Shown: one piece after another, positions 3,296 to 26,380 of the stretch
How the letters are laid out: each line of letters begins with the position of its first letter
Numbering within the stretch: the stretch's first letter is position 1
NCBI GenBank assembly: GCA_900234795.1
Contig: LT962688.1
Span: forward strand, 2,070,001 to 2,102,000
Direction: 5' to 3'
Length of the DNA: 32,000 nucleotides
Origin: Methylorubrum extorquens
GTDB lineage: Bacteria > Pseudomonadota > Alphaproteobacteria > Rhizobiales > Beijerinckiaceae
Program-made: the position numbers and the translations under genes
The notes under the pieces: model-generated
The model's input: only the letters and a program-made list of their open reading frames with translations
The model's database searches: none
What the model was told of the DNA's origin: nothing

Positions 3296-4778
3296 ATGCG
3301 TCCCGCCCAGATCGTCCCCCTCGTCGTCGCCACCGCCTTGTTCATGGAGAACACCGACTCGACGGTGATCGCCACGGCCCTGCCGGCGATCGCGGCGAGC
3401 CTCGGTGTCGATCCGATCGCCCTCAAGCTCGCGCTCACCGCCTATCTCGTGAGCCTGGCGATCTTCATCCCGGTCTCAGGCTGGGCCGCCGACCGCTACG
3501 GCGCCCGTAACGTCTTCCGCGCCGCCCTGTGCGTGTTCATGGCGGGTTCGCTCGCCTGCGCCGCCGCGAACTCGCTCACCGGTTTCGTCGCCGCCCGCTT
3601 CGTGCAGGGGATCGGCGGGGCGATGATGGTGCCGGTCGGCCGCCTCGTGATCCTGCGCTCGGTGCCGAAATCCGAACTCGTCGGGGCGCTCGCCTACCTC
3701 ACCATCCCGGCGCTGATCGGCCCGATCCTCGGGCCGCCGCTCGGCGGCTTCATCACCACCTATGCCGACTGGCGCTGGATCTTCTTCATCAACATCCCGA
3801 TCGGGCTCGCCGGCATCGTCCTCGCGACCCTGTATTTCGGCGATATCCGCGAGGAAACGCGCCCGCCGCTCGACGTGGCGGGCTTCCTGCTCTCGGGCGG
3901 CGGGCTCGCCCTGCTGATGCTCGGCTTTGCCGCAACCGGGCGCCACCTCCTGCCGGACGGCGTGTCCTGGGCCTGCATGGCCGGCGGAATCGTGCTCGTC
4001 GGGCTCTACCTGCGCCATGCTAAACGCACCGAGCATCCGCTCATCCGCCTCGACCTGCTCAAGCACGACACCTTCGGCGCGGCGGTGACGGGGGGAAGCC
4101 TGTTCCGCATCGGTACCGGCGCCATCCCCTTCCTGCTGCCGCTGATGCTGCAGATCGGCTTTGGGCTCGATCCGCTGCATTCCGGGCTCATCACCTTCGC
4201 CGCGGCGGCCGGCGCCCTTCTCATCAAGATCGTCGGCCCGCGCATCCTACGCGCCTACGGGTTCCGCCGGGTGATGGTGGTCAACGCGCTGGTCGCCTCC
4301 GCCTTTCTCGCCGCCAACGGGCTATTCACGGCGCAGACCCCGCACTGGATCATCGTCGGCGTGCTCCTGCTCGGCGGCTGCGTGCGCTCGCTGCAATTCA
4401 CGTGCGTCAACGCCATCGCCTATGCCGACCTCGAATCGCGGGAGATGAGCGCGGCCACGAGTCTGGCCAGCGTCGCGCAGCAAATTGTCCCTCAGCCTCG
4501 GTGTCTCCATCGGCGCCCTGGCGCTGGAGGGCGCTGCCGCCTGGCACGGCCATGCGGGGATCGAGGCGGGGGATTTCTCCCTCGCCTTCCTCGGGGTGGC
4601 CGTGGTCTCGGTGGGCTCGTTCTTCGTGTTCCGGCGGCTCGCGCCGGATGCGGGCGCGGAGGTGTCCGGTCAGCGACGGGTCGCCGAGGCCGTGCCGAGA
4701 CCCGCCGATGGTTCGCCCCAGAGCCTTGCCCCTGTTATGCCGCGGCCCGCGCCGGAGCCCGGCCGCCCGCCCGCTTGA
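3296..4778 (+). pseudogene. MFS transporter (DHA2 / EmrB-QacA-like, multi-TM) interrupted by a 1-nt insertion near 4484
   Basis: The start is MRPAQIVPLVVATALFMENTDSTVIATALPAIA at ATG 3296. MFS motifs are present (GWAADRYGARNVF, FVQGIGGAMMVP). The frame is lost after ...SLASVAQQ (CAA at 4481-4483). It continues in the +1 frame as LSLSLGVSIGALALEG... to the stop at 4776-4778 (track ORF 4485..4778). Total length is 1483 nt, i.e. 3n+1. This could be a sequencing error in the AAA run. Confidence 0.8.
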
Positions 4779-5755: not shown

Positions 5756-7273
5756 ATGGCCCCGACGCTGCTGCACCACCTGCTCGAAGGAGCCGGCGCG
5801 GACGATTCCCCCGCGATCGTCGAGGGGGGCGAGACCCTCACCTATGGCGGCTTCCGGGCCCGCATCGCCGCTTTGGCGGGGCGCTTGGCACGTCTCGGCC
5901 TGCGGCCCGGCGACCGGGTCGCGATCCTGCTGCCGAAATCGATCTGCGAATGCGTCGCGATTTTTGCCGCCAGCGCGGCCGGCGGCGTATTCGTGCCGAT
6001 CCACCCGTCCTTGCGCCCGCGTCAGGTCCATCACATCGTCGCCGATAGCGGCGCGCGCGTGCTGCTGACCGATGCCACCCGCGCCGCCGGGCTCGAAGGC
6101 GCGCTCGATGACCTCGCGGACCTGCGCATCCTCGATGGGGAGAGGGGTGACGACGCCGCGGCCCTCATCCCCGGCGAGCCGGCGCCGGAGGGGCTGGCGG
6201 CGATCCTCTACACTTCGGGCTCGACCGGCCTGCCCAAGGGCGTGATGCTCTCCCACGCCAACCTGATCGCGGGCACCCGCATCGTGCGGACCTATCTCGG
6301 CATCAGCCCCGCGGACCGCCTCCTCTCGGTGCTGCCGTTCTCGTTCGATTACGGCCTCAACCAGCTCCTCACCACCGTAGAGCAGGGCGCGCGCATCGTG
6401 CTGCTGACGCCCCGGCTCGGCGACGACGTGGTGCGGGCGCTGGAGGCGCACCGCATCACGGTGCTGGCCGGCGTGCCGACGCTGTGGACGCTGCTGACAC
6501 GGGCCGCGCCGCATCTGGCGAAGGCGGACCTTTCGGCCCTGCGGGCGATCACCAATTCCGGCGGCAGCCTCGCCCTGCCGACGATCGAGCGCCTGCGCGC
6601 GCGGCTGCCGCATACGGCCGTCGTGCTGATGTACGGCCTGACGGAAGCCTTCCGCTCGACCTACCTGCCGCCGGAGGAGATCGACCGGCGGCCGGACTCG
6701 ATCGGCCGCGCCATCCCCGAGACCGAGATTTTTGCCGTCACCCTCGAAGGGCGCCGGGCGCGACCCGGCGAGCCCGGCATCCTGCATCACCGCGGCCCCA
6801 CCGTCTCGATGGGCTACTGGAAGCGGCCCGAGGACACCGCCCGCGTGCTGGTGCCCGATCCATTTCCGCCACCCGGTTCCGCGCCGGGCCTCGTCTGCCG
6901 CTCCGGCGACCTCGTGGTGGAGGATGCTGACGGCTTCTTCCGGTTCATCGGCCGCGAGGACACGATGATCAAGACGCAAGGGTTTCGCGTGAGCCCGACC
7001 GAGGTCGAGGCGGCGTTGATGGAGACGGGCGCCTTCCGCGCCGCCGCCGTGATCGGCCTGCCCGACCCGAGCCTCGGCCAGCGCATCCACGCCGTGACCG
7101 TCCCCGCCGAGGGTGCGCCGGGCACGGCGGACGTGCTGCAGCGCCTCCGCGCGGCGCTGGCACCCCATCTCGTGCCCCGCACCATCGAGGCGGTGGCCGC
7201 GCTGCCGACCACGCCCAACGGCAAGGTCGATTACAAGCGCCTCACCGCCGAGCGCGCGGCGGTGGAAATCTAG
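5756..7273 (+). CDS. AMP-dependent synthetase/ligase (adenylate-forming; acyl-CoA ligase-like), 505 aa
   Basis: Adenylation motifs are present: ILYTSGSTGLPKGV, YGLTEA, SGDLVVEDADGFFRFIGREDTMIKTQGFRVSPTEVE and PTTPNGKVDYKRL. ATG 5756 is 19 nt after the carrier-protein stop. The upstream part of track ORF 5630.. overlaps the carrier gene and is not coding. Confidence 0.9.
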   Translation: MAPTLLHHLLEGAGADDSPAIVEGGETLTYGGFRARIAALAGRLARLGLRPGDRVAILLPKSICECVAIFAASAAGGVFVPIHPSLRPRQVHHIVADSGARVLLTDATRAAGLEGALDDLADLRILDGERGDDAAALIPGEPAPEGLAAILYTSGSTGLPKGVMLSHANLIAGTRIVRTYLGISPADRLLSVLPFSFDYGLNQLLTTVEQGARIVLLTPRLGDDVVRALEAHRITVLAGVPTLWTLLTRAAPHLAKADLSALRAITNSGGSLALPTIERLRARLPHTAVVLMYGLTEAFRSTYLPPEEIDRRPDSIGRAIPETEIFAVTLEGRRARPGEPGILHHRGPTVSMGYWKRPEDTARVLVPDPFPPPGSAPGLVCRSGDLVVEDADGFFRFIGREDTMIKTQGFRVSPTEVEAALMETGAFRAAAVIGLPDPSLGQRIHAVTVPAEGAPGTADVLQRLRAALAPHLVPRTIEAVAALPTTPNGKVDYKRLTAERAAVEI

Positions 7274-7278
7274 GACCG

Positions 7279-8568
7279 ATGGCTGACGCTCCCGACCTCG
7301 CCGCCGCGCTGATCGCCGAAAACTTTTCCCGCGATGCAGGCGGCGTGCTGCGGGTCGGCGGCCTGCCGCTGACCGACCTCGCAAAGGAATTCGGCACGCC
7401 GCTCTTCGTCTACGACGCCGATACGATGCGCCGGACCTACCGGGCGCTGTGCGCGGCACTCGCCGGCTTCGCGGAGGTGGATTTTTCGGTCAAGGCGAAC
7501 CCGAACCCGGCGGTGATCCGCGTCTTCTCTCAGGAGGGTGCGGGGGCCGAGATCGCCTCCGGCGCCGAGTTCGACGCTGCGATCAGGGCGGGTGTTCCAC
7601 CGGAAAAGATCCTGTTCGCCGGCCCAGGCAAGGGTGCGGCCGACCTCGACCGGGTGATCGGCGGCGGCATCGGCGAAATCCATCTCGAAAACCGCGAGGA
7701 GATTGTTCGCGTCGCGGCGGCGGCCGAGCGTCACGGTGTGCGCGTGCGGGTGGCGCTGCGGATCAATCCCGGCGCGACCGCGCAAGGCGGGGCGATGCGG
7801 ATGGGCGGCAAGCCTTCGCCGTTCGGCTTCGACGAGGAGGACATCGAGGCCGCCATCGACACGGTGGAGGCCGCACCGCGCTTGCGCCTCGTCGGGCTCC
7901 ACCTGTTCGCCGGCACGCAAGGGCTGAAGGCGGACACCCTCCTCGGCCAGTGGACCTACGGGCTCGGACTTGCAGCGCGGATCGCGAACCGAATCGGGCG
8001 GCCGCTGGAGACGATCGATCTCGGCGGCGGCCTCGGCATCCCGTACTTCTCCGGCGACACCGCCCTCGATCTCAGCGCGATCCGGGCCGGGCTGCCCGAC
8101 CTGATCGCCACCCTGCGGGCGGACCCGCTGATGGCGCGCGCCCGCGTGGTGCTGGAGCCCGGCCGCTATCTCACCGGTCCGGCGGGCGTCTACGTGGCGC
8201 GGGTGCTGGCGGTGAAGGAATCGCGCGGCAGCCGCTTCGTCATCACCGATGGCGGCATGCACCATCATCTCGCCGCCAGCGGCAATCTCGGCCAGATCGT
8301 CAAGCGCGACTTTCCCCTCGCGGCCGTGACCGATGTGGGCGGTGAACGCGCGGCGACCGCGGTCGTCGGCCCGCTCTGCACGCCGCTGGACATGCTGGCC
8401 CGCGCCGCCGCCCTGCCGCCGCTGGCCGAGGGCGATTTCGTCGCGGTGCTGCAATCGGGGGCCTACGGGCTCACCGCGAGCCCGACGGGATTCCTGAGCC
8501 ACCCGACCCCGGCCGAAGTGCTGGTGGACGGGGGCGAGGCCAGGGAGATCCGGGCGCGCGGGCCTTGA
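7279..8568 (+). CDS. PLP-dependent decarboxylase, Orn/DAP/Arg decarboxylase fold (LysA-like), 429 aa
   Basis: Motifs: FSVKANPNPAV (PLP lysine), DLGGGLGIPY, LEPGRYL and GPLCTPLD. It starts 5 nt after the ligase stop. Confidence 0.9.
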   Translation: MADAPDLAAALIAENFSRDAGGVLRVGGLPLTDLAKEFGTPLFVYDADTMRRTYRALCAALAGFAEVDFSVKANPNPAVIRVFSQEGAGAEIASGAEFDAAIRAGVPPEKILFAGPGKGAADLDRVIGGGIGEIHLENREEIVRVAAAAERHGVRVRVALRINPGATAQGGAMRMGGKPSPFGFDEEDIEAAIDTVEAAPRLRLVGLHLFAGTQGLKADTLLGQWTYGLGLAARIANRIGRPLETIDLGGGLGIPYFSGDTALDLSAIRAGLPDLIATLRADPLMARARVVLEPGRYLTGPAGVYVARVLAVKESRGSRFVITDGGMHHHLAASGNLGQIVKRDFPLAAVTDVGGERAATAVVGPLCTPLDMLARAAALPPLAEGDFVAVLQSGAYGLTASPTGFLSHPTPAEVLVDGGEAREIRARGP

Positions 8569-8677: not shown

Positions 8678-10354
8678 TCAGGCGGCCCGCACCGTGGCGA
8701 GAAAGCGCTGAACCTCTGTCGAGAGGTTCTCGGACTGGCGTGACAGCTCCGCGGCGGCGCTCAGGACCTGGCTCGCGGCAGCCCCCGTCTCCTCGGCGGC
8801 GCCGGCCACGCTGGTGATGTTCGTCGTCACCTCCCCGGTGCCGATCGCGGCCTGGGCGACGTTGCGCACGATCTCCTGAGTCGCCGCCCCCTGCTGCTCC
8901 ACCGCGGCGGCGATGCTCGACGCCACGCCGTTGATCTCCCTGATGCGGCTGGCGATGCCGCCGATGGCTGCCACCGCCTGCCCGGTCGCCCCTTGGATCG
9001 TGCCGATCTGGGAGGCGATTTCATCGGTGGCGCGCGACGTCTGGTTGGCGAGCTCCTTCACCTCGGACGCGACGACGGCGAAGCCGCGGCCCGCCTCGCC
9101 GGCCCGCGCCGCCTCGATCGTCGCGTTCAGCGCCAGCAGGTTGGTCTGACCGGCGATCGTCGAGATCATCGCAACGACGTTGTTGATCTGAGCCGCGGCG
9201 TTCGACAGGTTCTGCACCAGCACCGCCGTATGGTCGGCCTCGCCGACCGCGCTCTCGGCCAAGTCCGCCGAACTCGCCACTTGGCGGCCGATCTCCTGCA
9301 CCGAGGCGCCGAGTTCCTCGGCCGCCGCGGCCACGGTCTGCACGTTCGCCGCCGCCTCCTCAGCCGCGGACGCCACGGTCAGGGATTGCGACGCCGTCTC
9401 GGTGGCCGTTCCCGACATGCTCCGGGCCGTCGCCTGCAACTGGCTGGCGGACGAGGTCACCATGCCGATGATCCCGCTGACCATCGTCTCGAAATGATCG
9501 GCCATCTGCCGCATGCCGGCCTTGCGCTGCTCCTCCGCCGAGGCGCGGGCGAGAGCGGTGTCCTCCTCCAGCTTGCGCGTATGGATCAGGTTCGTGCGGA
9601 ACACCTCGACGGTGGATGCCATCTCGCCGATCTCGTTCCGTCGGCCCTTGGACGGCACCTCCCGGTCGGTATCGCCGCTCGCGATGTCGCGCATCGCGCG
9701 CGTCATCTGCTCGATGGGCCGGGCCACGCCGAAGATAGAGAACGCCATGGCCAGGATCGTGACGACGAGGCCCGCGACCAGCATCGCGATGGCCGTATGG
9801 ATCGCCTGAGTCTGTTGGATCTGCGCGGCCTCTCCGGCGGCCTTGCTCACCTCGAAGTTCAGATCGACGAGCCGGGTCGCGGCGGCGGCGGCGGCGCGAT
9901 ACCGTGCATGGTTCTCCGTCCGGAACAGCACCAGCGCCTGATCGGCGTTTGTTTCGGCGATCCGCAGCAGGTTGGACCAGTCCTGCTTCAGCGCGCCGAC
10001 CGTCTGGATGAGGTCGTCGTAGGCGGCCTGCTCGGTGCTGCTGACGATGAGCACCTTGTACTTGTCGAGCTCCGCGGTGCGCGCCTCCATCAACTCATGC
10101 GCCAAGGCGAGGTCTTCTTTCCTGATCGCATCATTGGGTGCGGTCAGGAACCGCAGCTGGGCCGTTCTGACCTGCAGGATGAGCCTATTGATGCGACTCG
10201 CCTGATTGAGGGATGGAATTGCATTGGTGATGATGACGTTCGTGCTCTCGCCATTCGTTTGGAGGGCTTTGATCGAAATGATCCCCTGAATGGCGGATAC
10301 AATCGTCAGGATGGCAAACATGCCAACGAGTATTGCTTTGATGCTAATTCTCAT
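8678..10354 (-). CDS. methyl-accepting chemotaxis protein (N-terminal TM, four-helix-bundle type sensor, TM2, HAMP, MA signalling domain), 558 aa
   Basis: N-terminus [24 protein letters not shown], a second TM at [23 protein letters not shown], and the conserved signalling hairpin ...[37 protein letters not shown]... Confidence 0.9.
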
Positions 10355-10783
10355 TTTTCGCCCCAGTCTAATTTCTCCTCAAATCTATCATGAGTTTGAT
10401 AATGGAATCTAAATCCCAATGCGGCGCGCCCTGCTCGATTATTGCTGTTTCAATGAGATATAATGATTTTGACTGGGATTATTGGCGGACTTATTTCGTT
10501 TGTCTTGATCAGCGGTTGAGATTTCTGTCGATGTTCGTTCAAAGGTTGCATCAACTGATGAGGGGACAGGGACGGGCTGAAGCCGCCGGTCTTCGAGGCT
10601 CGGCTCCGGAGCGGCGACGACGGGAGCGCATTCCGACGAAGTGGTCACCGGCTCGTCGAAGGAATGCGCACCACAACAAGGACCGAGAGGCACCGACCCG
10701 ATGCCATCAGGCCGGGCGACGCCGGGTCCTCGCGACCGCACAGGGGCTGCTCCCGAAGGCCGGCCGGTGAGGCGTATGCCGGA

Positions 10784-16760: not shown

Positions 16761-17501
16761 TCAGGCGTTGGCGCCGCCATCGACCGTGAGGGTGGTCCCC
16801 GTGATCTGTCGCGCCGCCGGGCTCGCCAGGAAGGCGACCGCGGCAGCGATGTCCTCCGGCCGGCCGTAATGGCCGAGCGCGGTCATGGCGCGCTGGAGGT
16901 CCGACTGTTCGCCGTTGGACGGATTCATGTCGGTGTCGGTCGAGCCCGGCTGCACGAGGTTTACGGTGATGCCCTGAGGCCCGAGTTCGCGGGCGAGACC
17001 ACGGGTGAACGAGAGCAGCGCGGACTTCGTCATCGAGTAGACCGTGACACCGGGAAACGGCACGCGCTCGCCGAGGCACGAACCGATGGAGATGATCCGT
17101 CCGCCCTCCCCGAGATGCGGGATCGCCGCCTGCGAGGCCAGCACCACGGAGCGAATGTTCACGGCCAGCAGCGCGTCGATATCGGCCAAAGACATATCCG
17201 TCACCGGGCCGCCGCGGGCGATGCCGGCATTGTTCACGAGGATGTCGAGTCCGCCGAGTTCCGCCGCGGCCGCCTCGACCGAGCGCTTCACCGCCGCAGC
17301 ATCCGCGCTGTCAGCCTGGATGGCGAGGCCGCGCCGGCCCTGTCCCTCGATCGCCCGCACGACGTCCGCCGCTCGCTCGGCCGAGCGCTCGTAGGTGATC
17401 GCCACGTCCGCACCCCGCTCCGCCAGCGCCAGGGCGATGGCGGCGCCGATCCCGCGGGAGGCGCCGGTTACGAGGGCGCGCTTGCCTGCCAGTTCACTCA
17501 T
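16761..17501 (-). CDS. SDR family oxidoreductase (classical short-chain dehydrogenase), 246 aa
   Basis: Motifs TGASRGIGAAIA (cofactor binding), NNAG and catalytic YSMTKSA. Confidence 0.9.
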   Translation of the reverse strand: MSELAGKRALVTGASRGIGAAIALALAERGADVAITYERSAERAADVVRAIEGQGRRGLAIQADSADAAAVKRSVEAAAAELGGLDILVNNAGIARGGPVTDMSLADIDALLAVNIRSVVLASQAAIPHLGEGGRIISIGSCLGERVPFPGVTVYSMTKSALLSFTRGLARELGPQGITVNLVQPGSTDTDMNPSNGEQSDLQRAMTALGHYGRPEDIAAAVAFLASPAARQITGTTLTVDGGANA

Positions 17502-17513
17502 CGATTGATCTTT

Positions 17514-17531
17514 CTGTATCGAACGACACAG
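17514..17531. promoter_or_regulatory. imperfect 18-bp palindrome CTGTATCGAACGACACAG in the SDR-TetR divergent intergenic region (candidate TetR operator)
   Basis: 14 of 18 positions are self-complementary. It lies in the 81-nt gap between the two divergent start codons. The operator role is inferred. Confidence 0.3.
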
Positions 17532-17582
17532 AATTGGCTACGAGCGTTGCCGATCGCGGTCAAGCGAATTATAGAACGATCG

Positions 17583-18239
17583 ATGCAGAATTCTGAACCC
17601 GGCCCTTCCCCGCTGAGCTGCGGCCCAACGCGTGGCCGCGGCCGGCCGCGCGCCTTCGATCGGGACGCGGCGCTGACCCAGGCCATGCACGTGTTCTGGC
17701 GCAAGGGCTTTGCGGCCACCGCCATCTCCGAGCTGACCGCGGCGATGGGGATCGGCTCGCCGAGCCTCTACGCGGCGTTCGGCTCGAAGGAGGGGCTCTA
17801 CACGGAGGCCCTGCGCCACTACCGCGAGCGATACGGGGCGCATGTCTGGGGCAACTTCGATGCGGCCCCGACCGCGCGCGCGGCCGTCGAATCCCTGCTG
17901 ATGGACACGGCCGCCGCTCTGACGCAGGTCTGCGCGCCCGAGGCGCCGCGCGGCTGCATGGTGACGCTCTCGGCCGTCGGCGGCGAGGGCCATGCGGAGC
18001 TCGGCGCCTGCGTGCGGGCGGCGCGCGCCCTCGGATTCGAGCGCGTCGTGGCGCGGCTCAGCCGCGCGGCGGTGGAGGGCGAATTCGGTGCCGCGGTCGA
18101 TCTCCCCGCCCTCGCCCGCTTCGTGATGACGGTGCAGGGCGGGATGTCGCTTCAGGCTCGCGACGGCGCGAGCCGGGCCGAGCTGGAGGCGGTCGCCCGT
18201 CTGACGATGGCGGGATGGGACGCCAGGGTCGCCGCTTGA
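17583..18239 (+). CDS. TetR/AcrR family transcriptional regulator, 218 aa
   Basis: N-terminal HTH region GRPRAFDRDAALTQAMHVFWRKGFAATAISELTAAMGIGSPSLYAAFGSKEGLY. ATG 17583 is in the frame of track ORF 16869..18239, whose upstream part is antisense to the SDR gene. Confidence 0.9.
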   Translation: MQNSEPGPSPLSCGPTRGRGRPRAFDRDAALTQAMHVFWRKGFAATAISELTAAMGIGSPSLYAAFGSKEGLYTEALRHYRERYGAHVWGNFDAAPTARAAVESLLMDTAAALTQVCAPEAPRGCMVTLSAVGGEGHAELGACVRAARALGFERVVARLSRAAVEGEFGAAVDLPALARFVMTVQGGMSLQARDGASRAELEAVARLTMAGWDARVAA

Positions 18240-18252
18240 TCGCGCCCGGCCT

Positions 18253-19155
18253 TCAGGCCGCCTCGTCCTCGGGGATGACATCGACCTCGACGGTGAGCTT
18301 CTGCTCCCCGGCAGAGGCGACCATGCCATCGATGGGGGCGACGTCGGCGTAATCGCGTCCGCGCGCCACGACGATGTGGTCGTCCCGCACGACGCAGGCA
18401 TTGGTCGGGTCGAGGCCGATCCAGCCACCCTCCCCCGCGCCCGCCTCGGGTCCGCACCAGAGGGCGACCCAGGCGTGGCTGGCATCCGCCCCACGCAGGC
18501 GCGGACGCCCGGCCGGCGGCCGGGTGCGCAGGTAGCCGCTGACATAGGCCGCCGGCAGGCCGAGCCCGCGAAGGCCGGCGATCATGACATGGGTGAAGTC
18601 CTGGCAGACGCCCGCCCTCAAGGCGAAGGCTTCCGCCAGCGGCGTCGAGACGGTGGTCGCCTTGGCGTCGAAACGGAAGTCGTCGCGGATGCGCTGCATC
18701 AGCTCGACCGCGCCGCCATAGGCGCTGCGCCCCGGCGGGAAGCTGGCGCGGGCATAGTCCGTCACCGCCGGTTCGAGCGGCACCCGCTGGCTGCGGAACT
18801 GGAAATGCGCCGGCCCGTCCGGCCCGAGCGAGGGCAGCGCCAAGGCGGCCGCACGCACGGCCTCCCAGGACAGGCCCGACTCGGGCGGCGGCGGGGCCGG
18901 CCGCTCCACGGCGACGCGGGAGACCGCCTCGACCGTGAATTCGCGATGGGGCTCGTCGAGGGTCAGGGTCAGCGTGTCGAGGCCGAAGAAGTCGCGCCGC
19001 GCGAGACGGCTGGTCGGCGTGGGCGTGACGTGAAGCGCGCTCTCCAGCACCCGCTGCCCCTCGCCGTCGCGGGGGCGAAGGCGCAGGTTGCAGCGCGCGA
19101 AGCGGACGGCCCGCGCATAGCGGTAGGTCGTCAGGTGACGCAGGCTGTAGATCAA
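18253..19155 (-). CDS. transglutaminase-like family protein (Bact_transglu_N plus transglutaminase core), 300 aa, TTG start
   Basis: The start is (L/M)[16 protein letters not shown], the typical N-terminus of this family. Cys/His/Asp motifs are GVCQDFTHV, SHAWVALW and GLDPTN. TTG 19155-19153 overlaps the upstream TGA (TTGA). There is no ATG or GTG nearby in frame. Confidence 0.8.
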   Translation of the reverse strand: MIYSLRHLTTYRYARAVRFARCNLRLRPRDGEGQRVLESALHVTPTPTSRLARRDFFGLDTLTLTLDEPHREFTVEAVSRVAVERPAPPPPESGLSWEAVRAAALALPSLGPDGPAHFQFRSQRVPLEPAVTDYARASFPPGRSAYGGAVELMQRIRDDFRFDAKATTVSTPLAEAFALRAGVCQDFTHVMIAGLRGLGLPAAYVSGYLRTRPPAGRPRLRGADASHAWVALWCGPEAGAGEGGWIGLDPTNACVVRDDHIVVARGRDYADVAPIDGMVASAGEQKLTVEVDVIPEDEAA

Positions 19156-21692
19156 GCGAGACCCGTGAGCTTCTCGGGCCGCAGGGCATCGGGGCCGTTG
19201 GGGAAATAGCGGCCGGCGATCCCGTCGGCGAGGCCCTCCAGGTCCGCCTCGAACCGCTCCAGGGTCTCGGCGTCGAGCGCGGCGGCCTCCGCCGTCTGGA
19301 GCGTGCTGGCCAGCGCCAGCGCCCGACGGCGGTGCGGCTCGGGCAGTCCGTCGGCGGCGAGCGCCGGCAGGGCGTCGAGATGGGCGACCATCGCCTGGAG
19401 CTGGTAGGCGACGGAGCGGGGATTGTTGGGGTCGAGCACCGCCATGTCGCAGACCGCGTCGCGGCTCACGCCGACGAGGTAGCGCGCCCCGTAGGCGATC
19501 TGCGAATCGGCGAGCGAGAGCATCACGCCGAGATCCTCGGCGCCGGCGTCCGGGCTGCAGAAGCGGAGCGCGAAGCCGCAGGTGTTGATCGCCCGCTCGA
19601 CGCGCCGGCCCATATCGGCGAAGCGCCAGCCGGCGGCGTGGCCCATATTTTCGTGGAGCAGGCCGGTGAGCGCGGCGAGATGGCCGAGCGCCCGCTCGGC
19701 CTTGCCGAAGAGCTGCGCCTCGGTCGGCGCCCAGGCTTCGGTATAGGCCAGGGTGTCGCGCAAATCGGCCAGAGCCCGCCAGGATTCGGCCGGCAGCCGC
19801 TCGCGCAGGGAGGCGGCGATGCGCCGGGCCTCCAGCACATGGGCGAGGCCCGAGCCGTGAAGCGTCTTGCCGGAGAGCGCCTCCCCGGCCACGGCCGCGG
19901 GCGGGAGATCGACCGCGCTCACCGCGCCCCAATCCTTGAGCAGCGCGCGGATGGCGAGCGCCGTCGGCGCACCCTCCTCGCCGGAGGCGTCGGCGGCGAT
20001 CGCCTCGCTGAACACGCCGAGATGGGCCTGGACGAGGCGGATCACCGCTTCCGCGCGCTCAAGGTAGCGCCCGAACCAGAACAGGTTGTCGGCGGCCCGT
20101 GACGGCAGATGGCCGGCGATGCGGCGGATGCGCGGCGCGCTCGTGTGCACCAGGCCCGGGGTGTCGACGGGCGTGTCGGACAGGACCCAGACGTCGGCGG
20201 AGCGGATGCCGGCGCGCATCTCGCTGGGGTCGCCGCCCTCGTGCTCGGCGACGCGGCAGAAGGCGCTCGGCAGCACGCGCCATCCGTCGGGCGTGGCGGC
20301 GGCGAAGACGCGCATGACGAAGGGGCGTGCGACGAGCCGCCCGTCCTGCCACGCGGGCATGGTCGAGAGCGGCGCGGGCTCCTGCGCCACCCAATCGAAC
20401 GGCCGCTCGCGCAGGGACGCGACGGCGCGGGCGCGGGCGGCGTCGAGCGCCGGGCCGGCCAGCATCGCGTCGCGCTCCGGGCCGCGCACCGGGGTCGCGG
20501 CGGCGCGCAGCGTCAGGCGGTCGAGGTTGGCCAGCGCGTGGTCGAGGCCGTCCGGATCGCCGCACCACCATGTGCGGGGCCCCGTGAGCCGCAATTCCTC
20601 GCCGGTGAGCCGCCGGGCGATGGCCGGCAGGTAGGGCCCGAGCGCGGCCGATTCGAGCACGCCGGAGCCCGGCATGTTGCCGACCACGGCACCGCCCCGG
20701 CGCAGCACCTGGAGGATGCCGGGCACGCCGAGGCGCGAATCCGAGCGCAGCTCCATCGGGTCGAGATAGTCGGCATCGATCCGGCGCCAGACCGCGTCGG
20801 TGCGCTTGAGCCCGGCGATGGTCCGGACATGCAGGAGCCCGTCCCGCACCACGAGGTCGTCGCCCTCCACCAGCAGGAAGCCGAGATAGCGGGCGAGCGC
20901 GGCCTGCTCGACATAGGTGCTGCTGTAGGGGCCCGAAGTGAGAAGGCAGATGCGCGGGTCGCTGCGGGCGCAGGACGCGGCCAATCCGGCGCGGAACGCC
21001 TGGAAGAAGCCGGGCAGGCGCTCGACATGGAGGTCGGCGAACAGGTCCGGGAAGGCGCGGGCGAGCACCATCCGGTTCTCCAGCGCATAGCCGAGGCCCG
21101 AGGGCGCTTGGGTGCGGTCGGCCAGAACCTGCCAGCGCCCGTCGGGGCCGCGGCCGACATCGGCGGCGTAGATCGGCAGCCAGCGCCCGCCGGGCGGGGC
21201 GATGCCGTGGACGGGCCGAAGATATTCGGGATGCCCGGCGACCACGCCCGCCGGCAGAAACCCGTCCGCGACGAGCCGGCCCGCGCCGTAGATGTCGGCG
21301 ACGATGCGCTCCATCAGGCCGGCGCGCTGGACGATCCCGGCCGACAGCTCCGCCCAGTCGGCGGCGTCGATGACGAGCGGCAACGAGCCCAGCGGCCAGG
21401 GATGCTCGCGCCCGTCGCCGTAGACCCGGTAGGAGATGCCCGCGTCGCGGATATGCCGCTCGGCGGAGAGGAAACGGGCGGCGACCTCGCGGTCGTCGAG
21501 CCGGGCGAGACGCTCCAGAAAGCGCGGCCAGCCGCCGCGCAGGTTGCCTCCCGCATCGACCAGCTCGTCGGCGAGGCCGGGGCGGGGCGCGTAGCCCTCC
21601 GTCCAGCGGCGCATGCGCGCGGCCGGGTCGTCGGCCGCCCAGGCGGAGGCGTCGGGCGGTGGCCCGTCCGCGAGGGCGGCCGATGCGCTCAT
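19152..21692 (-). CDS. fusion protein: circularly permuted type-2 ATP-grasp domain (about nt 20109-21692) plus alpha-E domain (about nt 19155-20108), 846 aa
   Basis: The N-terminal half resembles CP ATP-grasp (DUF404/DUF407-type) proteins (...[16 protein letters not shown]..., ...[27 protein letters not shown]...). The alpha-E hallmark [20 protein letters not shown] starts at residue ~529. ATG 21692 overlaps the upstream stop (ATGA). The first 240 codons of track ORF ..22412 overlap the upstream gene and are not coding. Confidence 0.85.
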
Positions 21693-24600
21693 CGGGGTGC
21701 GGGCGTGCGAAGGTCGAGGGTCAGGGGGAAATCGCCCGTGCGCTCCTCGGCCGGCATCGCGAGGCGGCCGGGGGTGTGGCCCATGGCCTCGAACCGGGCG
21801 AGGCGGCGCCCCTCCGCTTCGTACGCGTTGACGGGGAAGCTGTCGTAGTTGCGCCCGCCCGGATGGCTGACATGGTAGCGGCAGCCGCCGATCGAGCGGC
21901 CGCTCCAGGCATCGAAGATGTCGAAGGTCAGCGGCCCGTGCGGCGGGATCGTCGGGTGCATCGAGGAGGCCGGCTGCCACGCCTTGAAGCGCAGGCCCGC
22001 AACCGCTTCGCCGCTGGCGCCGGTCGGCGTCATCGGCAGGCGGCGGCCATTGCAGGCGATGACGTGCCGGCCGGGGACGAAGCCCTCGACCTTCACCTGA
22101 AGCCGTTCGACGGATGCGTCCACGAAGCGCACGGTTCCCCCGGCGGACCCTTCTTCGCCCAGCACGTGCCACGGCTCCAGTGCTTGGCGCAGTTCGAGGC
22201 CGACGCCGCCCTGCTCCACCCGGCCGAAGACGGGGAAGCGGAACTCGGCTTGCGCCGCGAAGGCCTGAGGGTCGAAGTCGTAGCCGCCGCCGCGCAGGTC
22301 TTCCAGCACGGAGAGGAAGTCCGCCCAGAGGAAATGCGGCAGCATGAAGCGATCGTGCAGCGCCGTGCCCCAGCGGACACAGCCGCCGGTCTGCGGCTCG
22401 CGCCAGAGCCACGCCACGATGGCCCGCAACAGCACCTGCTGCGCGAGGCTCATGCGCGCGTCCGGTGGCATCTCGAAGGAGCGGAATTCGAGCAGGCCGA
22501 GGCGGCCGGTGGCGCCGTCGGGCGAGAACAGCTTGTCGATGCAGATCTCGGCGCGATGGGTGTTGCCGGTGACGTCGGCGAGGATGTTGCGGAACAGCCG
22601 GTCCACCAGCCAGTGCGGGATGTTGGCCCCATCCGGCTCCGGCACCTGCGCCAGCGCGATCTCCAATTCGTAGAGCCCGTCATGGCGCGCCTCGTCCATG
22701 CGCGGCGCCTGGCTCGTCGGGCCGACATAGAGCCCGGCGAACAGGTAGGACAGGCACGGATGCCGCTGCCAGAACAGCACGAGGCTCTTCAAGAGGTCCG
22801 GCCGGCGCAGGAACGGCGAGTCGGACGGGGTCGCGCCGCCGAGCACGACATGGTTGCCCCCGCCGGTGCCGGTGTGGCGCCCGTCGATCATGAACTTCTC
22901 GGCGCCGAGGCGCGTCTGCCGCGCCTCCTCGTAGAGGCCGCGGGTGATGTCGACCGCCTCGCGCCAGGAGGCGGCGGGGTGGACGTTGACCTCGATCACG
23001 CCGGGATCGGGCGTGACCTTGATGACCGGGAGACGCGGATCGTAGGGCGGCTCGTAGCCCTCGATATGGATCGGCTGGCCGATGGTCTCGGCGACGCGTT
23101 CGAGATGTCCGACGAGGTCGATGTAGTCGTCGGCCCGCTCCACGGGCGGCATGAACACGCAGAGCACGCCGTCGCGGGGCTCGACCGACAGCGCGGTGCG
23201 CACGGCCACGCCCTCCATGCCGGCGCCGTTGGCCCGGTCGGCGCCCTTCGGCAGGGGAGCGTCGCGGGGGCCGCCCGGTTCGACGGGCAGGTCGCCGCGC
23301 GCCTCGAGCGGGTCCTGCGGATGGTAGTAGGGGTAGGAATCCGGCGGAACGTAGGGAAGCGAGCCGAGCGGCAGGCGGAAGCCCAAAGGCGAGTCGCCGG
23401 GGTTCAGGTAGGCGCCGCCGCGGCGGAACTTCCAGGTCTCCGAGATCCAGACACGGCCCTCCCCCGCCGCGAGGTTGGCCAGCGGCAGCACGTAGCCGAC
23501 GGGCTTGTCGAGGCCGCGCCCGAACACGCGCCTGAACCGGGCATCGGTCTCCGGGCTGCCGGTTTGCGGCTCCGCGGTCGTGACGTTGACCGGCAACTCG
23601 CTCTCGCGGATCCGCCAGTAGTCGGCGTCCTCGTAGGCCGGGAAGACGAAGCGGGCGAGTTCGAGCCGCTCGGCGAGCGTGCTGATCAGTCGCTCGGCAT
23701 CCGTGATGGTGGCGGTCTTCGGGCCGTCCTCGACGGCGATCAGGTCGGCGTTCTTCCAGATCGGCACGCCGTCCTTGCGCCAGTAGAGGGCGAAGGCCCA
23801 GCGCGGCAGGCTCTCGCCGGGATACCACTTGCCCTGGCCGTAATGCAGCATGCCGCCGGGCGCGAAGCGGTCCCGCAGGCGGCGGATCAGTTGGTCGGCC
23901 AAGCCCCGCTTGGTCGGCCCCACGGCGGCGACATTCCATTCGGGGGATTCGAAGTCGTCCACCGAGACGAAGGTCGGCTCGCCGCCCATGGTCAGGCGCA
24001 CGTCCTGCTCGGCGAGATCCGCGTCGATGCGCTCGCCGAGCGCGTCCATCGAGGTCCAGACCTCGTCCGAGAACGGCTTGGTGATGCGCGGCGCCTCGGC
24101 GACGCGGCTGATCGTCATCTCGTAGGCGAACTCGACCTTGGCCGGTTCGGCGAGCCCGGAGATCGGCGCGGCGGCGTTGTAATGCGCGGTGGCCACGAGC
24201 GGGATGTGCCCCTCGCCCGTGAGCAGGCCGGAGGTGGCGTCGAAGCCGATCCAGCCGGCACCGGGCAGGTAGACCTCGGCCCAGGCATGCAGGTCGGTGA
24301 AGTCGGTCTTGGTGCCGGCCGGGCCGTCCACGGCGGTGGTGTCGGGCACGAGCTGGATCAGGTAGCCCGAGACGAAGCGGGCGGCAAAGCCGAGGCGGCG
24401 CAGCACCTGCACCAGCAGCCACGCGGAATCGCGGCACGAGCCGCTCTGCAGGGTGAGCGTCTCGGCCGGCGTCTGCACGCCGGGCTCCATGCGCACGCCG
24501 TAATTCACCTCCGCCCGCAGCAGCGCGTTGAGCGCCACGAGGAAGGTGACCGTATGGGTCTCCTCGGGAATGCGCGTGAGGAAGGCGTCGATCTCCGGCC

Positions 24601-24973
24601 CGTGCGCGTCGTCGAGAACGAGGTAGGGTGCCAGCGCGACCTTCAGATCGGGCTCGTACTCGAAGGGATGGCGCTCGGCGTAGGGCTCGACGAAGAAGTC
24701 GAACGGGTTGATGACCGCGAGGTCGGCGGTGAGATCGACCTCGATGCGCAGTTCCGTGGTCTTTTCCGGGAAGACGAGCCGGGCGAGCCAGTTGCCGGCC
24801 GGATCCTGCTGCCAGTTGATGAAGTGGTTTTCCGGGCTGACCTTCAGCGCGTAGGCCGGCACCCGGGTTCGCGCATGCGGCGCCGGGCGGAGCCGGATCG
24901 TCTGCGGTCCCAGCGCGATCGGCCGGTCGTAGCGGTAATGCGTGACGTGGTGCAGGGCGGCTTGGATCGACAC
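21689..24973 (-). CDS. large transglutaminase-like / DUF2126 (predicted GS-like amidoligase) protein, about 1094 aa
   Basis: N-terminus ...[32 protein letters not shown]. Transglutaminase core motifs are [52 protein letters not shown] long C-terminal region is typical of DUF2126 proteins. I prefer GTG 24973, with GGAG 5 nt upstream. The longest frame starts at ATG 25039. Confidence 0.85.
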
Positions 24974-25219
24974 GGAGGCTCCGAAGGCTTCTGCGATTGT
25001 CTCGAACGAGCGGGCGGTGCGCTCGGCCGCCGGTTGCATGCCTTACTACAGTTCGGGCGGCCGGAAGGAGCAATCGGAATAGCAAGAACCGTGCAGTGGC
25101 CGTTGCCCGGCATGGAACTTCGTCCGGCTCACACCCTTGGTTGATGCGGAAGGCCGCGGGAGCGAGGCTGCGGCCCGGTTCTTGTAGGGATCCCGCGACG
25201 GCCGAAGCGGGGGCCTCCC

Positions 25220-26380
25220 ATGAAAATCTTTCAGTGCCAAGCCTGCGACCAGCCGCTGTCGTTCGAGAGCACCGTCTGCGAGAGCTGCGAGCGGCGGCTC
25301 GGCTATGTCTGCGACCGGCACGAGATCTCGGCGCTGGAGCCCAGCGGCGAGGATGGGCGCGGGCCGCTGTTCCGGGCCTACGCCCATCCCGGCCGCAAGT
25401 ACCGCCTTTGCGCCAACGCGGCCCATGACGCCTGCAACTGGATGGTGCCGGAGGAATCCGACGAGGCCTTCTGCGTCGCCTGCCGCCACAACCGGATGGT
25501 GCCGGACCTGGGCGTCGGGACCAATCTCGACCGCTGGCGCCGGATCGAGGCGGCCAAGCACCGGTTGTTCTACTCGCTCCTGCGCCTCGACCTTCCGCTG
25601 GTGACGCGGGAGCAATATTCCGACGGGCTCGCCTTCGATTTCCTCGCCGAATCCGCCGGACCGCCGGTGATGACCGGCCATCTCGACGGGCTCATCACCC
25701 TGTCCATTGCCGAGGCCGACGACGTCGAGCGGGAGCGCCGCCGCAAGCTGTTCGGCGAGTATTACCGCACCCTGCTCGGCCATTTCCGCCACGAGATCGG
25801 GCATTACTTCTGGAACCTGATGGTGCGCTTCGACGCGAGCCTGCCGACCTTCCGCGCCCTGTTCGGTGACGAGAGCGCCGATTACGGGGCCGCGCTCAAA
25901 CGCCATCATGCCGAGGGGCCGCCGCCGCATTGGGAGGAATCGTTCGTCTCGTCCTACGCGACCGCCCATCCGTGGGAGGATTTCGCCGAGACCTTCGCCC
26001 ACTACCTGCACATCATCGACACGCTGGAGACCGGCAGCGCCTTCGAGATCCGCCTGAAACCGAAGCTGCGGGCCAAGGCGGAGCCGGCGGTACCGGCCAC
26101 CTGCATCGATTTCGATCCCTACGAGACGCCGGACTTCGAGCGGGTGGTCGAGGCGTGGATCCCGCTCACCTACGCGGTGAACTCGCTCAGCCGCTCCATG
26201 GGGCAGCCGCCGCTCTATCCGTTCACGCTGACGCCGTCGGTGATCGCCAAGCTCGCCTTCGTACATGAGCGGATCTACGCCGCGCGCGCACCCGGCGGCT
26301 TCACGGAGGAGGCGAGCGCCGAGATGCTGAAGGCGGTGATCGCGGGGCTGCGCCAGCGGGTGGCGACCCCGACGACCTGA
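25220..26380 (+). CDS. zinc-ribbon plus HEXXH putative zinc metallopeptidase, 386 aa
   Basis: N-terminal CxxC...CxxC (MKIFQCQACDQPLSFESTVCESCERRLGY). HEIGH at residues 191-195 (nt 25790-25804). Downstream HPWEDFAETFAHYLH is a candidate third-ligand region. Divergent from the transglutaminase operon. Confidence 0.8.
   Translation: MKIFQCQACDQPLSFESTVCESCERRLGYVCDRHEISALEPSGEDGRGPLFRAYAHPGRKYRLCANAAHDACNWMVPEESDEAFCVACRHNRMVPDLGVGTNLDRWRRIEAAKHRLFYSLLRLDLPLVTREQYSDGLAFDFLAESAGPPVMTGHLDGLITLSIAEADDVERERRRKLFGEYYRTLLGHFRHEIGHYFWNLMVRFDASLPTFRALFGDESADYGAALKRHHAEGPPPHWEESFVSSYATAHPWEDFAETFAHYLHIIDTLETGSAFEIRLKPKLRAKAEPAVPATCIDFDPYETPDFERVVEAWIPLTYAVNSLSRSMGQPPLYPFTLTPSVIAKLAFVHERIYAARAPGGFTEEASAEMLKAVIAGLRQRVATPTT

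Follow-up and report, generated by a model that had tools for sequence, protein, structure and literature searches.

Many bacteria carry a small operon whose products resemble the parts of an amide-bond machine – two ligase-type enzymes and two transglutaminase-like thiol enzymes – and the question raised by such a locus is what it joins and what it cleaves. One copy lies at positions 18253-24973 of a 32,000-nucleotide (nt) stretch of the Methylorubrum extorquens chromosome (contig LT962688.1, positions 2,070,001 to 2,102,000; hereafter the window), where three consecutive genes, referred to here as genes 1, 2 and 3, are read from the minus strand. This operon is an ordinary orthologue of a widespread system known from comparative genomics since 2008-2009, and the system is among the most widespread in bacteria to which no function has been assigned, extending from Proteobacteria to Planctomycetes and mycobacteria.

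Here, we examine the gene structure, conservation, domain content and upstream region of the operon, together with a divergently transcribed gene for a zinc metallopeptidase of the Peptidase_Mx family. The two ligase/thiol-hydrolase pairs and the Peptidase_Mx protein would together form a cytosolic, ATP-using system that makes and cleaves amide bonds. We favour, with slightly less than even confidence, a small nitrogen-containing metabolite or a short (iso)peptide as its substrate rather than a protein tag, acting within a response to nitrogen limitation.

Structure and conservation of the operon

An initial annotation, made from the letters of the window without database searches, described three minus-strand genes joined by ATGA and TTGA stop/start overlaps, and both overlaps can be read directly in the sequence (Table 1). 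Third-codon-position G+C is 0.86-0.96 along the three reading frames, in a window with an overall G+C content of about 70%. Automatic gene callers start gene 1 at an in-frame ATG at 25039, giving a product of 1116 aa, whereas the initial annotation chose the GTG at 24973. Conservation makes the GTG the better start, because GGAG-N5-GTGTCGATCCAAGCC is kept in an alignment with four Methylobacterium/Methylorubrum loci and the stretch upstream of it, including ATG 25039, is not; moreover, most of the listed gene-1 relatives are 1080-1100 aa long and their consensus starts MSI. Deposited gene 1 models that include 24974-25039 are probably 22 codons too long. The TTG start proposed for gene 3 also stands, because it aligns with the GTG starts of relatives, in which the overlap reads GTGA.

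A 4-nt overlap between genes 2 and 3 is found in 35 of 68 loci, mostly as GTGA; genes 1 and 2 overlap in this way in just 11 of the 68 and are usually separated by a gap of less than 15 nt. No convincing Shine-Dalgarno sequence was found at the start of gene 2 or gene 3, and scans for consensus sigma-70 promoters and terminators gave none inside the operon; termination-reinitiation coupling on one transcript is therefore plausible. The single-operon organization put forward initially is supported, with genes 2 and 3 plausibly translationally coupled, and in the reading that we favour all three genes form one transcription unit. To call the genes 'stoichiometrically coupled', as the initial annotation did, reads too much into the overlaps, since that between genes 1 and 2 is present in so few loci and coupling does not fix a 1:1 ratio. 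Scans of the window against Rfam and for tRNAs returned no matches.

Homologues of gene 1 form at least 8000 clusters at 90% identity, and a match at E <= 1e-30 is seen for 2894 representatives of a library clustered at 50% identity. The nearest named relatives among the matches listed are in Methylorubrum/Methylobacterium (M. aminovorans at 93% and M. salsuginis at 89% identity), and the family is found throughout free-living bacteria of soil and water. In a sample of 80 loci, each from a different species and spanning Alpha- and Gammaproteobacteria, a Planctomycete and a Vulcanimicrobiota metagenome-assembled genome, the order gene 1-gene 2-gene 3 on the same strand is present in about 72, an arrangement far beyond chance. 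Gene 1 stands without adjacent genes 2 and 3 in six loci (L025, L029, L042, L066, L077 and L079), among which no common substitute partner was found. Clustering of flanking open reading frames (ORFs) of at least 90 aa in the 80 loci gave, besides Peptidase_Mx, only generic or lineage-specific neighbours, including ABC-F, LysR, aldehyde dehydrogenase and glycogen phosphorylase genes.

On the downstream side, a TetR gene is convergent with gene 3 and ends 13 nt away from it. This gene and the SDR gene beside it (16761-18239) are missing at that position even in the closest species (loci L021 and L007), so the downstream operon boundary is strain- or species-specific; the TetR, SDR and MFS genes that follow in the window are none of them conserved there in the closest species.

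The gene divergent from gene 1 encodes a zinc ribbon followed by a Peptidase_Mx zincin. It was overlooked in the initial annotation, which also missed three matters discussed below: the sigma-54-type promoter, the published evidence that nitrogen limitation induces related operons, and the contested report on Rv2569c. The Pfam matches of the zincin protein have E values of 6e-103 (PF15887, 343.8 bits) and 6e-30, and H191, E192, H195 and E257 are invariant in the alignment of its family. A Peptidase_Mx gene adjoins the gene-1 homologue in 11 of the 80 gene-1-centred loci. Approached from the peptidase side, the 32 metagenomic Peptidase_Mx loci that have 1.5 kb or more on each flank include 17 with a gene-1 homologue, and two of the three genomic Peptidase_Mx homologues examined stand alone. 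Three arrangements are seen among 29 metagenomic Peptidase_Mx loci with a gene-1 homologue: the peptidase gene precedes gene 1 on a shared strand in 21 (105-330 nt apart in 18 of these), is divergent from it in six, all of the Methylobacterium clade to which the window belongs, and comes last in the order gene 1-gene 2-gene 3-peptidase in two. Loci L011 and L089 have matching arrangement patterns. With about half of its close homologues next to a gene-1 homologue, Peptidase_Mx is a facultative fourth component of the system. The related Anbu operons carry a different, non-homologous peptidase at the fourth position (PMC6376114), and this, together with the three arrangements of Peptidase_Mx, suggests hydrolysis of an amide or peptide as the final step.

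Table 1. Coordinates of the operon, its domains and the adjacent elements in the window
Feature	Position	Strand	Description
Gene 1	21689..24973	-	GTG start 24973-24971, 1094 aa; transglutaminase-like module fused to DUF2126, a putative amidoligase
Gene 1 residues 1-276	24146..24973	-	Bact_transglu_N + Transglut_core module; triad C180/H229/D245; paralogue of gene 3
Gene 1 residues 277-1089	21707..24145	-	DUF2126 region (PF09899, profile positions 2-826/826); predicted carboxylate-amine ligase in the literature
Gene 2	19152..21692	-	ATG start, 846 aa; circularly permuted ATP-grasp fused to Alpha-E
Gene 2 residues 105-482	20247..21380	-	CP_ATPgrasp_2 domain (PF14403, 3e-131, 438 bits, positions 1-374/374)
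Gene 2 residues 529-830	19203..20108	-	Alpha-E domain (PF04168, 4e-60, 204.5 bits); all-helical
Gene 3	18253..19155	-	TTG start, 300 aa; transglutaminase-like thiol enzyme, last in the operon
Gene 1/gene 2 stop/start overlap	21689..21692	-	ATGA; read directly in the sequence
Gene 2/gene 3 stop/start overlap	19152..19155	-	TTGA; read directly in the sequence
Shine-Dalgarno of gene 1	24979..24982	-	GGAG, 5 nt before the GTG; kept in the Methylobacterium/Methylorubrum alignment
Peptidase_Mx gene	25220..26380	+	Zinc ribbon + Peptidase_Mx zincin, 386 aa; divergent from gene 1; HEIGH and EDFAETFA motifs
Sigma-54-like -24/-12 element	25081..25096	-	CTGCACGGTTCTTGCT; 108-123 nt upstream of the gene 1 start; TG for the expected GG at -24

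The thiol and ligase-type modules

The Pfam matches of genes 1-3 are well over the curated cut-offs and bear out the domains recognized initially (Bact_transglu_N, Transglut_core, DUF2126, CP_ATPgrasp_2 and Alpha-E); NCBIfam models cover none of the three proteins. In gene 1, matches to Bact_transglu_N (PF08379; residues 7-83, 1e-26, 93.7 bits) and Transglut_core (PF01841; residues 138-246, 5e-16, 59.5 bits) precede a full-length match to DUF2126 (PF09899; E = 0, 1278 bits). The N-terminus also matches the sequence of PDB 3isr, a transglutaminase-like putative cysteine protease, and a Foldseek search with the gene 1 model returns the same structure for the N-terminal module only (E = 2.5e-8). 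Gene 3 matches Bact_transglu_N (4e-24, 85.7 bits) and Transglut_core (5e-15, 56.1 bits), and its Cys, His and Asp align with those of 3isr. The Cys/His/Asp motifs quoted in the initial annotation are present in both proteins, and no homologue departs from them: C180/H229/D245 are kept in all 81 homologues of gene 1 and C184/H227/D249 in all 70 of gene 3. With these residues intact, the papain-fold thiol modules of genes 1 and 3 are predicted to act as amidases, peptidases or transamidases.

Gene 3 and the first ~280 residues of gene 1 share 28% identity (E = 7e-16). This paralogy divides the system into two parallel units, each with a ligase-type and a thiol enzyme: one is the thiol module fused to DUF2126, the other the ATP-grasp::Alpha-E protein coupled to a free thiol module. 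The units are separable, because gene 1 occurs without adjacent genes 2 and 3 in the six loci listed above and DUF2126-only proteins also occur; some listed representatives of ~770-845 aa (P0370, P0385, P0395, P0404 and P0407) match the DUF2126 part alone and have no N-terminal transglutaminase-like module, although some of these may be fragments. Conservation differs among the three proteins, with at least 97% conservation at 331 of 1094 residues in gene 1 (81 homologues, median identity 63%), 72 of 846 in gene 2 (median identity 40%) and 40 of 300 in gene 3 (median identity 44%). Between phyla, gene 1 is still ~60% identical.

The assignment of DUF2126 as a glutamine-synthetase-like amidoligase is a prediction that goes back to Iyer, Burroughs and Aravind (2008), in whose description M. 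tuberculosis Rv2566 joins a transglutaminase-like domain to a carboxylate-amine/ammonia ligase domain (PMC2588565), and to the Pfam name, which follows that work. Our own searches give no link of this kind. With shallow alignments, phmmer and hmmsearch comparisons of the gene 1 family with PDB sequences gave no match to glutamine synthetase, GCS2 or PafA, and hhalign of DUF2126 with E. coli YbdK, also from shallow alignments, gave a probability of 0.2. An hmmscan of the C-terminal part of gene 1 against Pfam, with E values up to 10 allowed, returned DUF2126 itself and no family of the glutamine-synthetase, GCS2 or PafA kind. The full-length AlphaFold model of gene 1, built from a 13-sequence alignment, has a pLDDT of 47.6. 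Because the alignments are shallow, we regard these fold searches as inconclusive rather than negative. Several deposited gene-1 homologues are labelled 'IMP dehydrogenase' or 'dehydrogenase', names that we consider propagated misannotation because the domain content does not support them.

Gene 2 belongs only to CP_ATPgrasp families and to Alpha-E in Pfam. PDB 3n6x, a structure deposited as a 'putative glutathionylspermidine synthase', matches it from end to end along residues 67-506 (E = 4e-71), and the two have the motifs ENR, EGxDL, RRIDxDxxDP and NxxGxG in common. A Y. bercovieri ATP-grasp homologue releases phosphate from ATP (PMC6376114). Gene 2 is predicted to be an ATP-dependent ligase that works through an acyl-phosphate. 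Its Alpha-E domain was modelled by AlphaFold with a pLDDT of 81.7 and a pTM of 0.82 and has 13 helices in the model, and a Foldseek search of this model against the PDB gave no fold match (best E = 0.83, TM <=0.23). The domain contains two GRxxERA-type 'ER' motifs, in which R542/E545/R546 and E699/R700 are at least 97% conserved among 74 homologues, and the presence of two such motifs suggests that Alpha-E is internally duplicated. Lacking a solved structural relative, Alpha-E is a domain worth solving. None of the four proteins of the locus has a signal-peptide-like N-terminus, and the peptidase begins with a zinc ribbon; for these reasons the system looks cytosolic.

Upstream motifs, nitrogen limitation and possible substrates

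A sigma-54-type element recurs upstream of gene 1 in relatives, in the stretch that separates it from the peptidase gene, typically as CGGCCCGGAAATTGCA, or as TGGCATAAGTCTTGCG in Pseudomonas, and mostly 48-100 nt before the start codon. The -24/-12 consensus for such promoters is TGGCAC-N5-TTGCW, in which GG and GC are 10 nt apart. Among 108 non-identical upstream regions, the canonical GG-N8-TTGC is present in 34 (6.6 expected), and a variant, nGCAYG-N4-TTGCT, in 13 (0.2 expected), so that the two forms together account for 47 of the 108 regions, against ~7 expected. The variant, in which TG, AG or CG replaces the GG pair, is the form of the Methylobacterium clade, the window included. The window element (Table 1) is a candidate sigma-54 site of uncertain function. 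Two further features of the non-coding sequence may be recorded here. The divergent intergenic region has, at 25152-25175 (+), a G+C-rich inverted repeat whose stem is 8 bp long (GGCCGCGG...CTGCGGCC). This repeat is ~55-95 nt further upstream than the -24/-12-like element, shows no obvious conservation in L021 or L007 and could be an activator site or a chance occurrence. A second motif of the variant type, ACGCACGTGAATTGCA, is found at 4392-4407 (-), near MFS and DoxX genes.

Published expression data from related operons point towards nitrogen. Burkholderia cenocepacia BCAM1233-1236, which encode DUF404/407, DUF403, a transglutaminase-like protein and a 'large' transglutaminase-like protein, are strongly NtrC- and sigma-54-dependent under nitrogen limitation (PMC5491218). 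Pseudomonas putida PP_2685-2688, an Anbu-type operon, is up-regulated on nitrate relative to ammonium and under nitrogen-limited growth (PMC8050072, PMC3325844), and in marine metagenomes the domains of the system co-vary with those of urea metabolism (PMC3597751). Iyer et al. may already have reported both the link to the peptidase and the pattern of promoters in 2009.

The mechanism that we propose is as follows. Each ligase would activate a carboxylate as an acyl-phosphate and join it to an amine; each Cys/His/Asp module would hydrolyse or transfer an amide through a thioester intermediate; and the zinc peptidase, where present, would complete the breakdown. The 'ligate-and-trim or tagging' cycle suggested in the initial annotation is a reasonable hypothesis. 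A small-metabolite substrate is favoured because no tag gene is found, because gene 1 is so strongly conserved across phyla, as fits a universal small substrate, and because Iyer et al. (2008) reasoned that the lack of a small tag ORF argues for a peptide metabolite as opposed to protein conjugation (PMC2588565). A gamma-glutamyl- or glutathionylspermidine-type conjugate is one possibility.

Several considerations weigh against this proposal. The strong conservation of gene 1 would follow just as well from a protein target that is itself universally conserved. Our HMMER, hhalign and AlphaFold/Foldseek attempts, all with shallow alignments, gave no support to DUF2126 as a ligase. A bare ligase and amidase would run a futile cycle, so that the pair must be regulated, work by transfer chemistry or have an unlinked partner; and the known pathways of amine scavenging by gamma-glutamylation place oxidoreductases between ligation and hydrolysis, of which none is conserved here. 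The nitrogen-limitation data come from other species and in part from a paralogous operon of the Anbu type, and the window element has only one of the two near-invariant Gs of the -24 box; taken by itself, in the window, the match is not significant.

Protein tagging is a doubtful but serious alternative. The ligases would then add amino acids or a peptide to protein side chains or termini, in the manner of PafA, RimK and the tubulin-tyrosine ligases, the thiol enzymes would remove or transfer them, and the peptidase would degrade the marked proteins and so recycle nitrogen. Tagging or peptide modification is what Iyer et al. proposed in 2009, according to the passages on this system in PMC6376114 and PMC5666114, and transglutaminase-fold enzymes typically act on protein glutamine or lysine. 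The linkage to Peptidase_Mx in its three arrangements would fit, as would induction by nitrogen starvation, when protein turnover rises (PMC8050072, PMC3325844, PMC5491218). However, as Iyer et al. (2008) noted, there is no conserved small ORF near gene 1, which holds in 111 loci; pull-downs with the Anbu operon gave no stable complexes and Anbu was without peptidase activity (PMC6376114); and no AAA+ unfoldase or proteasome gene was seen among the window genes scanned. A bolder proposal, which we think unlikely, would make the four genes a nitrogen-starvation-induced, sigma-54-controlled conjugation/deconjugation pathway of a biochemically undescribed kind – either a new protein-marking system with Peptidase_Mx in the role of Anbu, or the source of an abundant but unrecognised amide-linked metabolite – with Alpha-E as its specificity or carrier domain.

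Other explanations fare less well. The thiol modules might use a thioester to release ammonia from glutamine or asparagine, whether free or within a peptide, with the fused or coupled ligase capturing that ammonia or an amine; a Cys-hydrolase fused to an ATP-dependent ligase does mirror the logic of glutamine amidotransferases, transglutaminase chemistry releases ammonia (PMC6376114), and the regulatory tie to nitrogen limitation (PMC5491218, and the counts of sigma-54-type promoters) would suit such scavenging, but the idea is inferential throughout and leaves the need for two ligases, Alpha-E and a peptidase unexplained, and we consider it improbable. It is very improbable that gene 3 encodes a serine protease, secreted or at the cell surface, with host or extracellular proteins as its targets, and the operon a virulence or colonisation factor. 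This idea derives from a report that M. tuberculosis Rv2569c, a member of a transglutaminase-like COG (the 'YebA superfamily'), is a surface serine protease cleaving casein, fibronectin and E-cadherin, with an activity blocked by AEBSF and PMSF and not by E-64 or N-ethylmaleimide (PMC11081392). Such an inhibitor profile is at odds with an invariant Cys/His/Asp triad, and gene 3 has no signal-peptide-like N-terminus, is coupled to cytosolic ATP-dependent enzymes and belongs to a family that is widespread in free-living bacteria. For these reasons we do not take the report to describe the native function; the serine-inhibitor pattern may reflect a contaminant or a secondary activity. Least credible of all is a role in anti-phage defence or another conflict system, although the operon is a multi-enzyme one with peptidase and ligase domains and some conflict systems do have ATP-grasp and transglutaminase-like domains: PADLOC gives no match for the four proteins, the locus is chromosomal with no mobile-element context seen in its flanks, and the cross-phylum conservation of gene 1 is unlike the patchy, fast-evolving character of defence genes.

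A small-metabolite or (iso)peptide substrate remains the preferred reading. Discovery of the true substrate would add a missing piece to the physiology of nitrogen stress, and perhaps to what is known of protein modification in prokaryotes. The window copy is nothing new as an object, and its value lies in the experimental handles that it offers – the Peptidase_Mx partner, the sigma-54-type promoters and the lack of a solved structural relative for Alpha-E – in a genetically tractable methylotroph; these handles suggest both inducing conditions and a fourth gene to include.

Two unrelated features of the window deserve mention. G+C content drops sharply at ~10100-10560, down to ~0.43 against 0.70 for the window, in a stretch that takes in the N-terminal coding part of a gene for a chemoreceptor (MCP; 8678-10355, minus strand) and intergenic sequence next to it; this sensor segment may have been recently acquired or recombined. 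At 5756-8568 (+), a gene for an AMP-binding (adenylate-forming) enzyme is followed after 5 nt by one for a pyridoxal-phosphate-dependent Orn/DAP/Arg decarboxylase, and the pair is probably a small operon.

Relation to known systems

The initial annotation treated the system as a known computational prediction with no demonstrated product, and our literature search likewise found no paper that assigns one. A full-text search on DUF2126 returned no papers, and among the titles listed for Anbu from 2019 onward none concerns the function of the operon. Three papers (PMC6376114, PMC5666114 and PMC3597751) cite Iyer et al. (2009) for the ATP-grasp/Alpha-E/transglutaminase system, and in their passages on it the role stands as unconfirmed; another on Anbu (PMC8665760) makes no mention of ATP-grasp or transglutaminase genes. 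Rv2567 has been expressed as a candidate gamma-aminobutyric acid (GABA)-trehalose synthetase, with a negative result (bioRxiv 10.64898/2026.04.15.718621). Five sets of known enzymes nonetheless provide useful comparisons.

The best mechanistic analogy for each ligase/thiol-enzyme pair is the glutathionylspermidine synthetase/amidase, GspSA. In this E. coli protein, a papain-fold thiol amidase and an ATP-dependent ligase act on the same amide bond. The window system differs in having a transglutaminase-like instead of a CHAP thiol module and two different ligases plus Alpha-E, and Pfam finds no CHAP or GSP_synth-type domain in the operon proteins. The likeness is one of mechanism and not of membership, and nothing found here ties the system to glutathione or spermidine. 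Amines are scavenged by gamma-glutamylation through PuuA and PuuD, and through the gamma-glutamylmethylamide synthetase of methylotrophs. These pathways resemble the window system in combining a glutamine-synthetase-type ligase with a Cys hydrolase, in their ligate-then-hydrolyse logic and in being nitrogen-responsive. Unlike it, they use oxidoreductases between the two steps and hydrolases of the class-I amidotransferase type, and neither is among the conserved flanking genes of the 80 loci.

Pupylation (PafA/Dop/Pup and the proteasome) is comparable in that its ligase superfamily is the same according to Iyer et al. (2008) and in pairing a ligase with an amidase that reverses it (PMC2588565). 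The window differs in having no proteasome or AAA+ partner in its flanks and no similarity at the level of HMMER, and a Pup-like gene was not found: within 700 nt upstream of gene 1, the 111 loci have no conserved small ORF, and the small-ORF clusters that do appear there are alternative-frame shadows of the peptidase gene. The Anbu operon is closer, with the circularly permuted (cp) ATP-grasp, Alpha-E and transglutaminase-like components in the same order and relatives that are induced by nitrogen limitation (PMC6376114, PMC5666114). In the window, by contrast, ATP-grasp and Alpha-E are fused, an extra DUF2126 gene lies upstream and the peptidase partner is the unrelated zincin Peptidase_Mx. 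No Pfam match to the proteasome family, which Anbu resembles, was seen in the window genes scanned on both sides of the operon, and no proteasome- or Anbu-type cluster in the flanks of the 80 loci.

The closest counterpart is in mycobacteria. Rv2569c presumably lies on the opposite strand in M. tuberculosis. Otherwise, the Rv2566/Rv2567 family described by Iyer et al. (2008) has the same gene 1 fusion followed by a cpATP-grasp::Alpha-E protein, with no small tag gene near (PMC2588565), and nothing essential distinguishes it from the window operon, which is the orthologous alphaproteobacterial copy with gene 3 co-directional with gene 2 and overlapping it.

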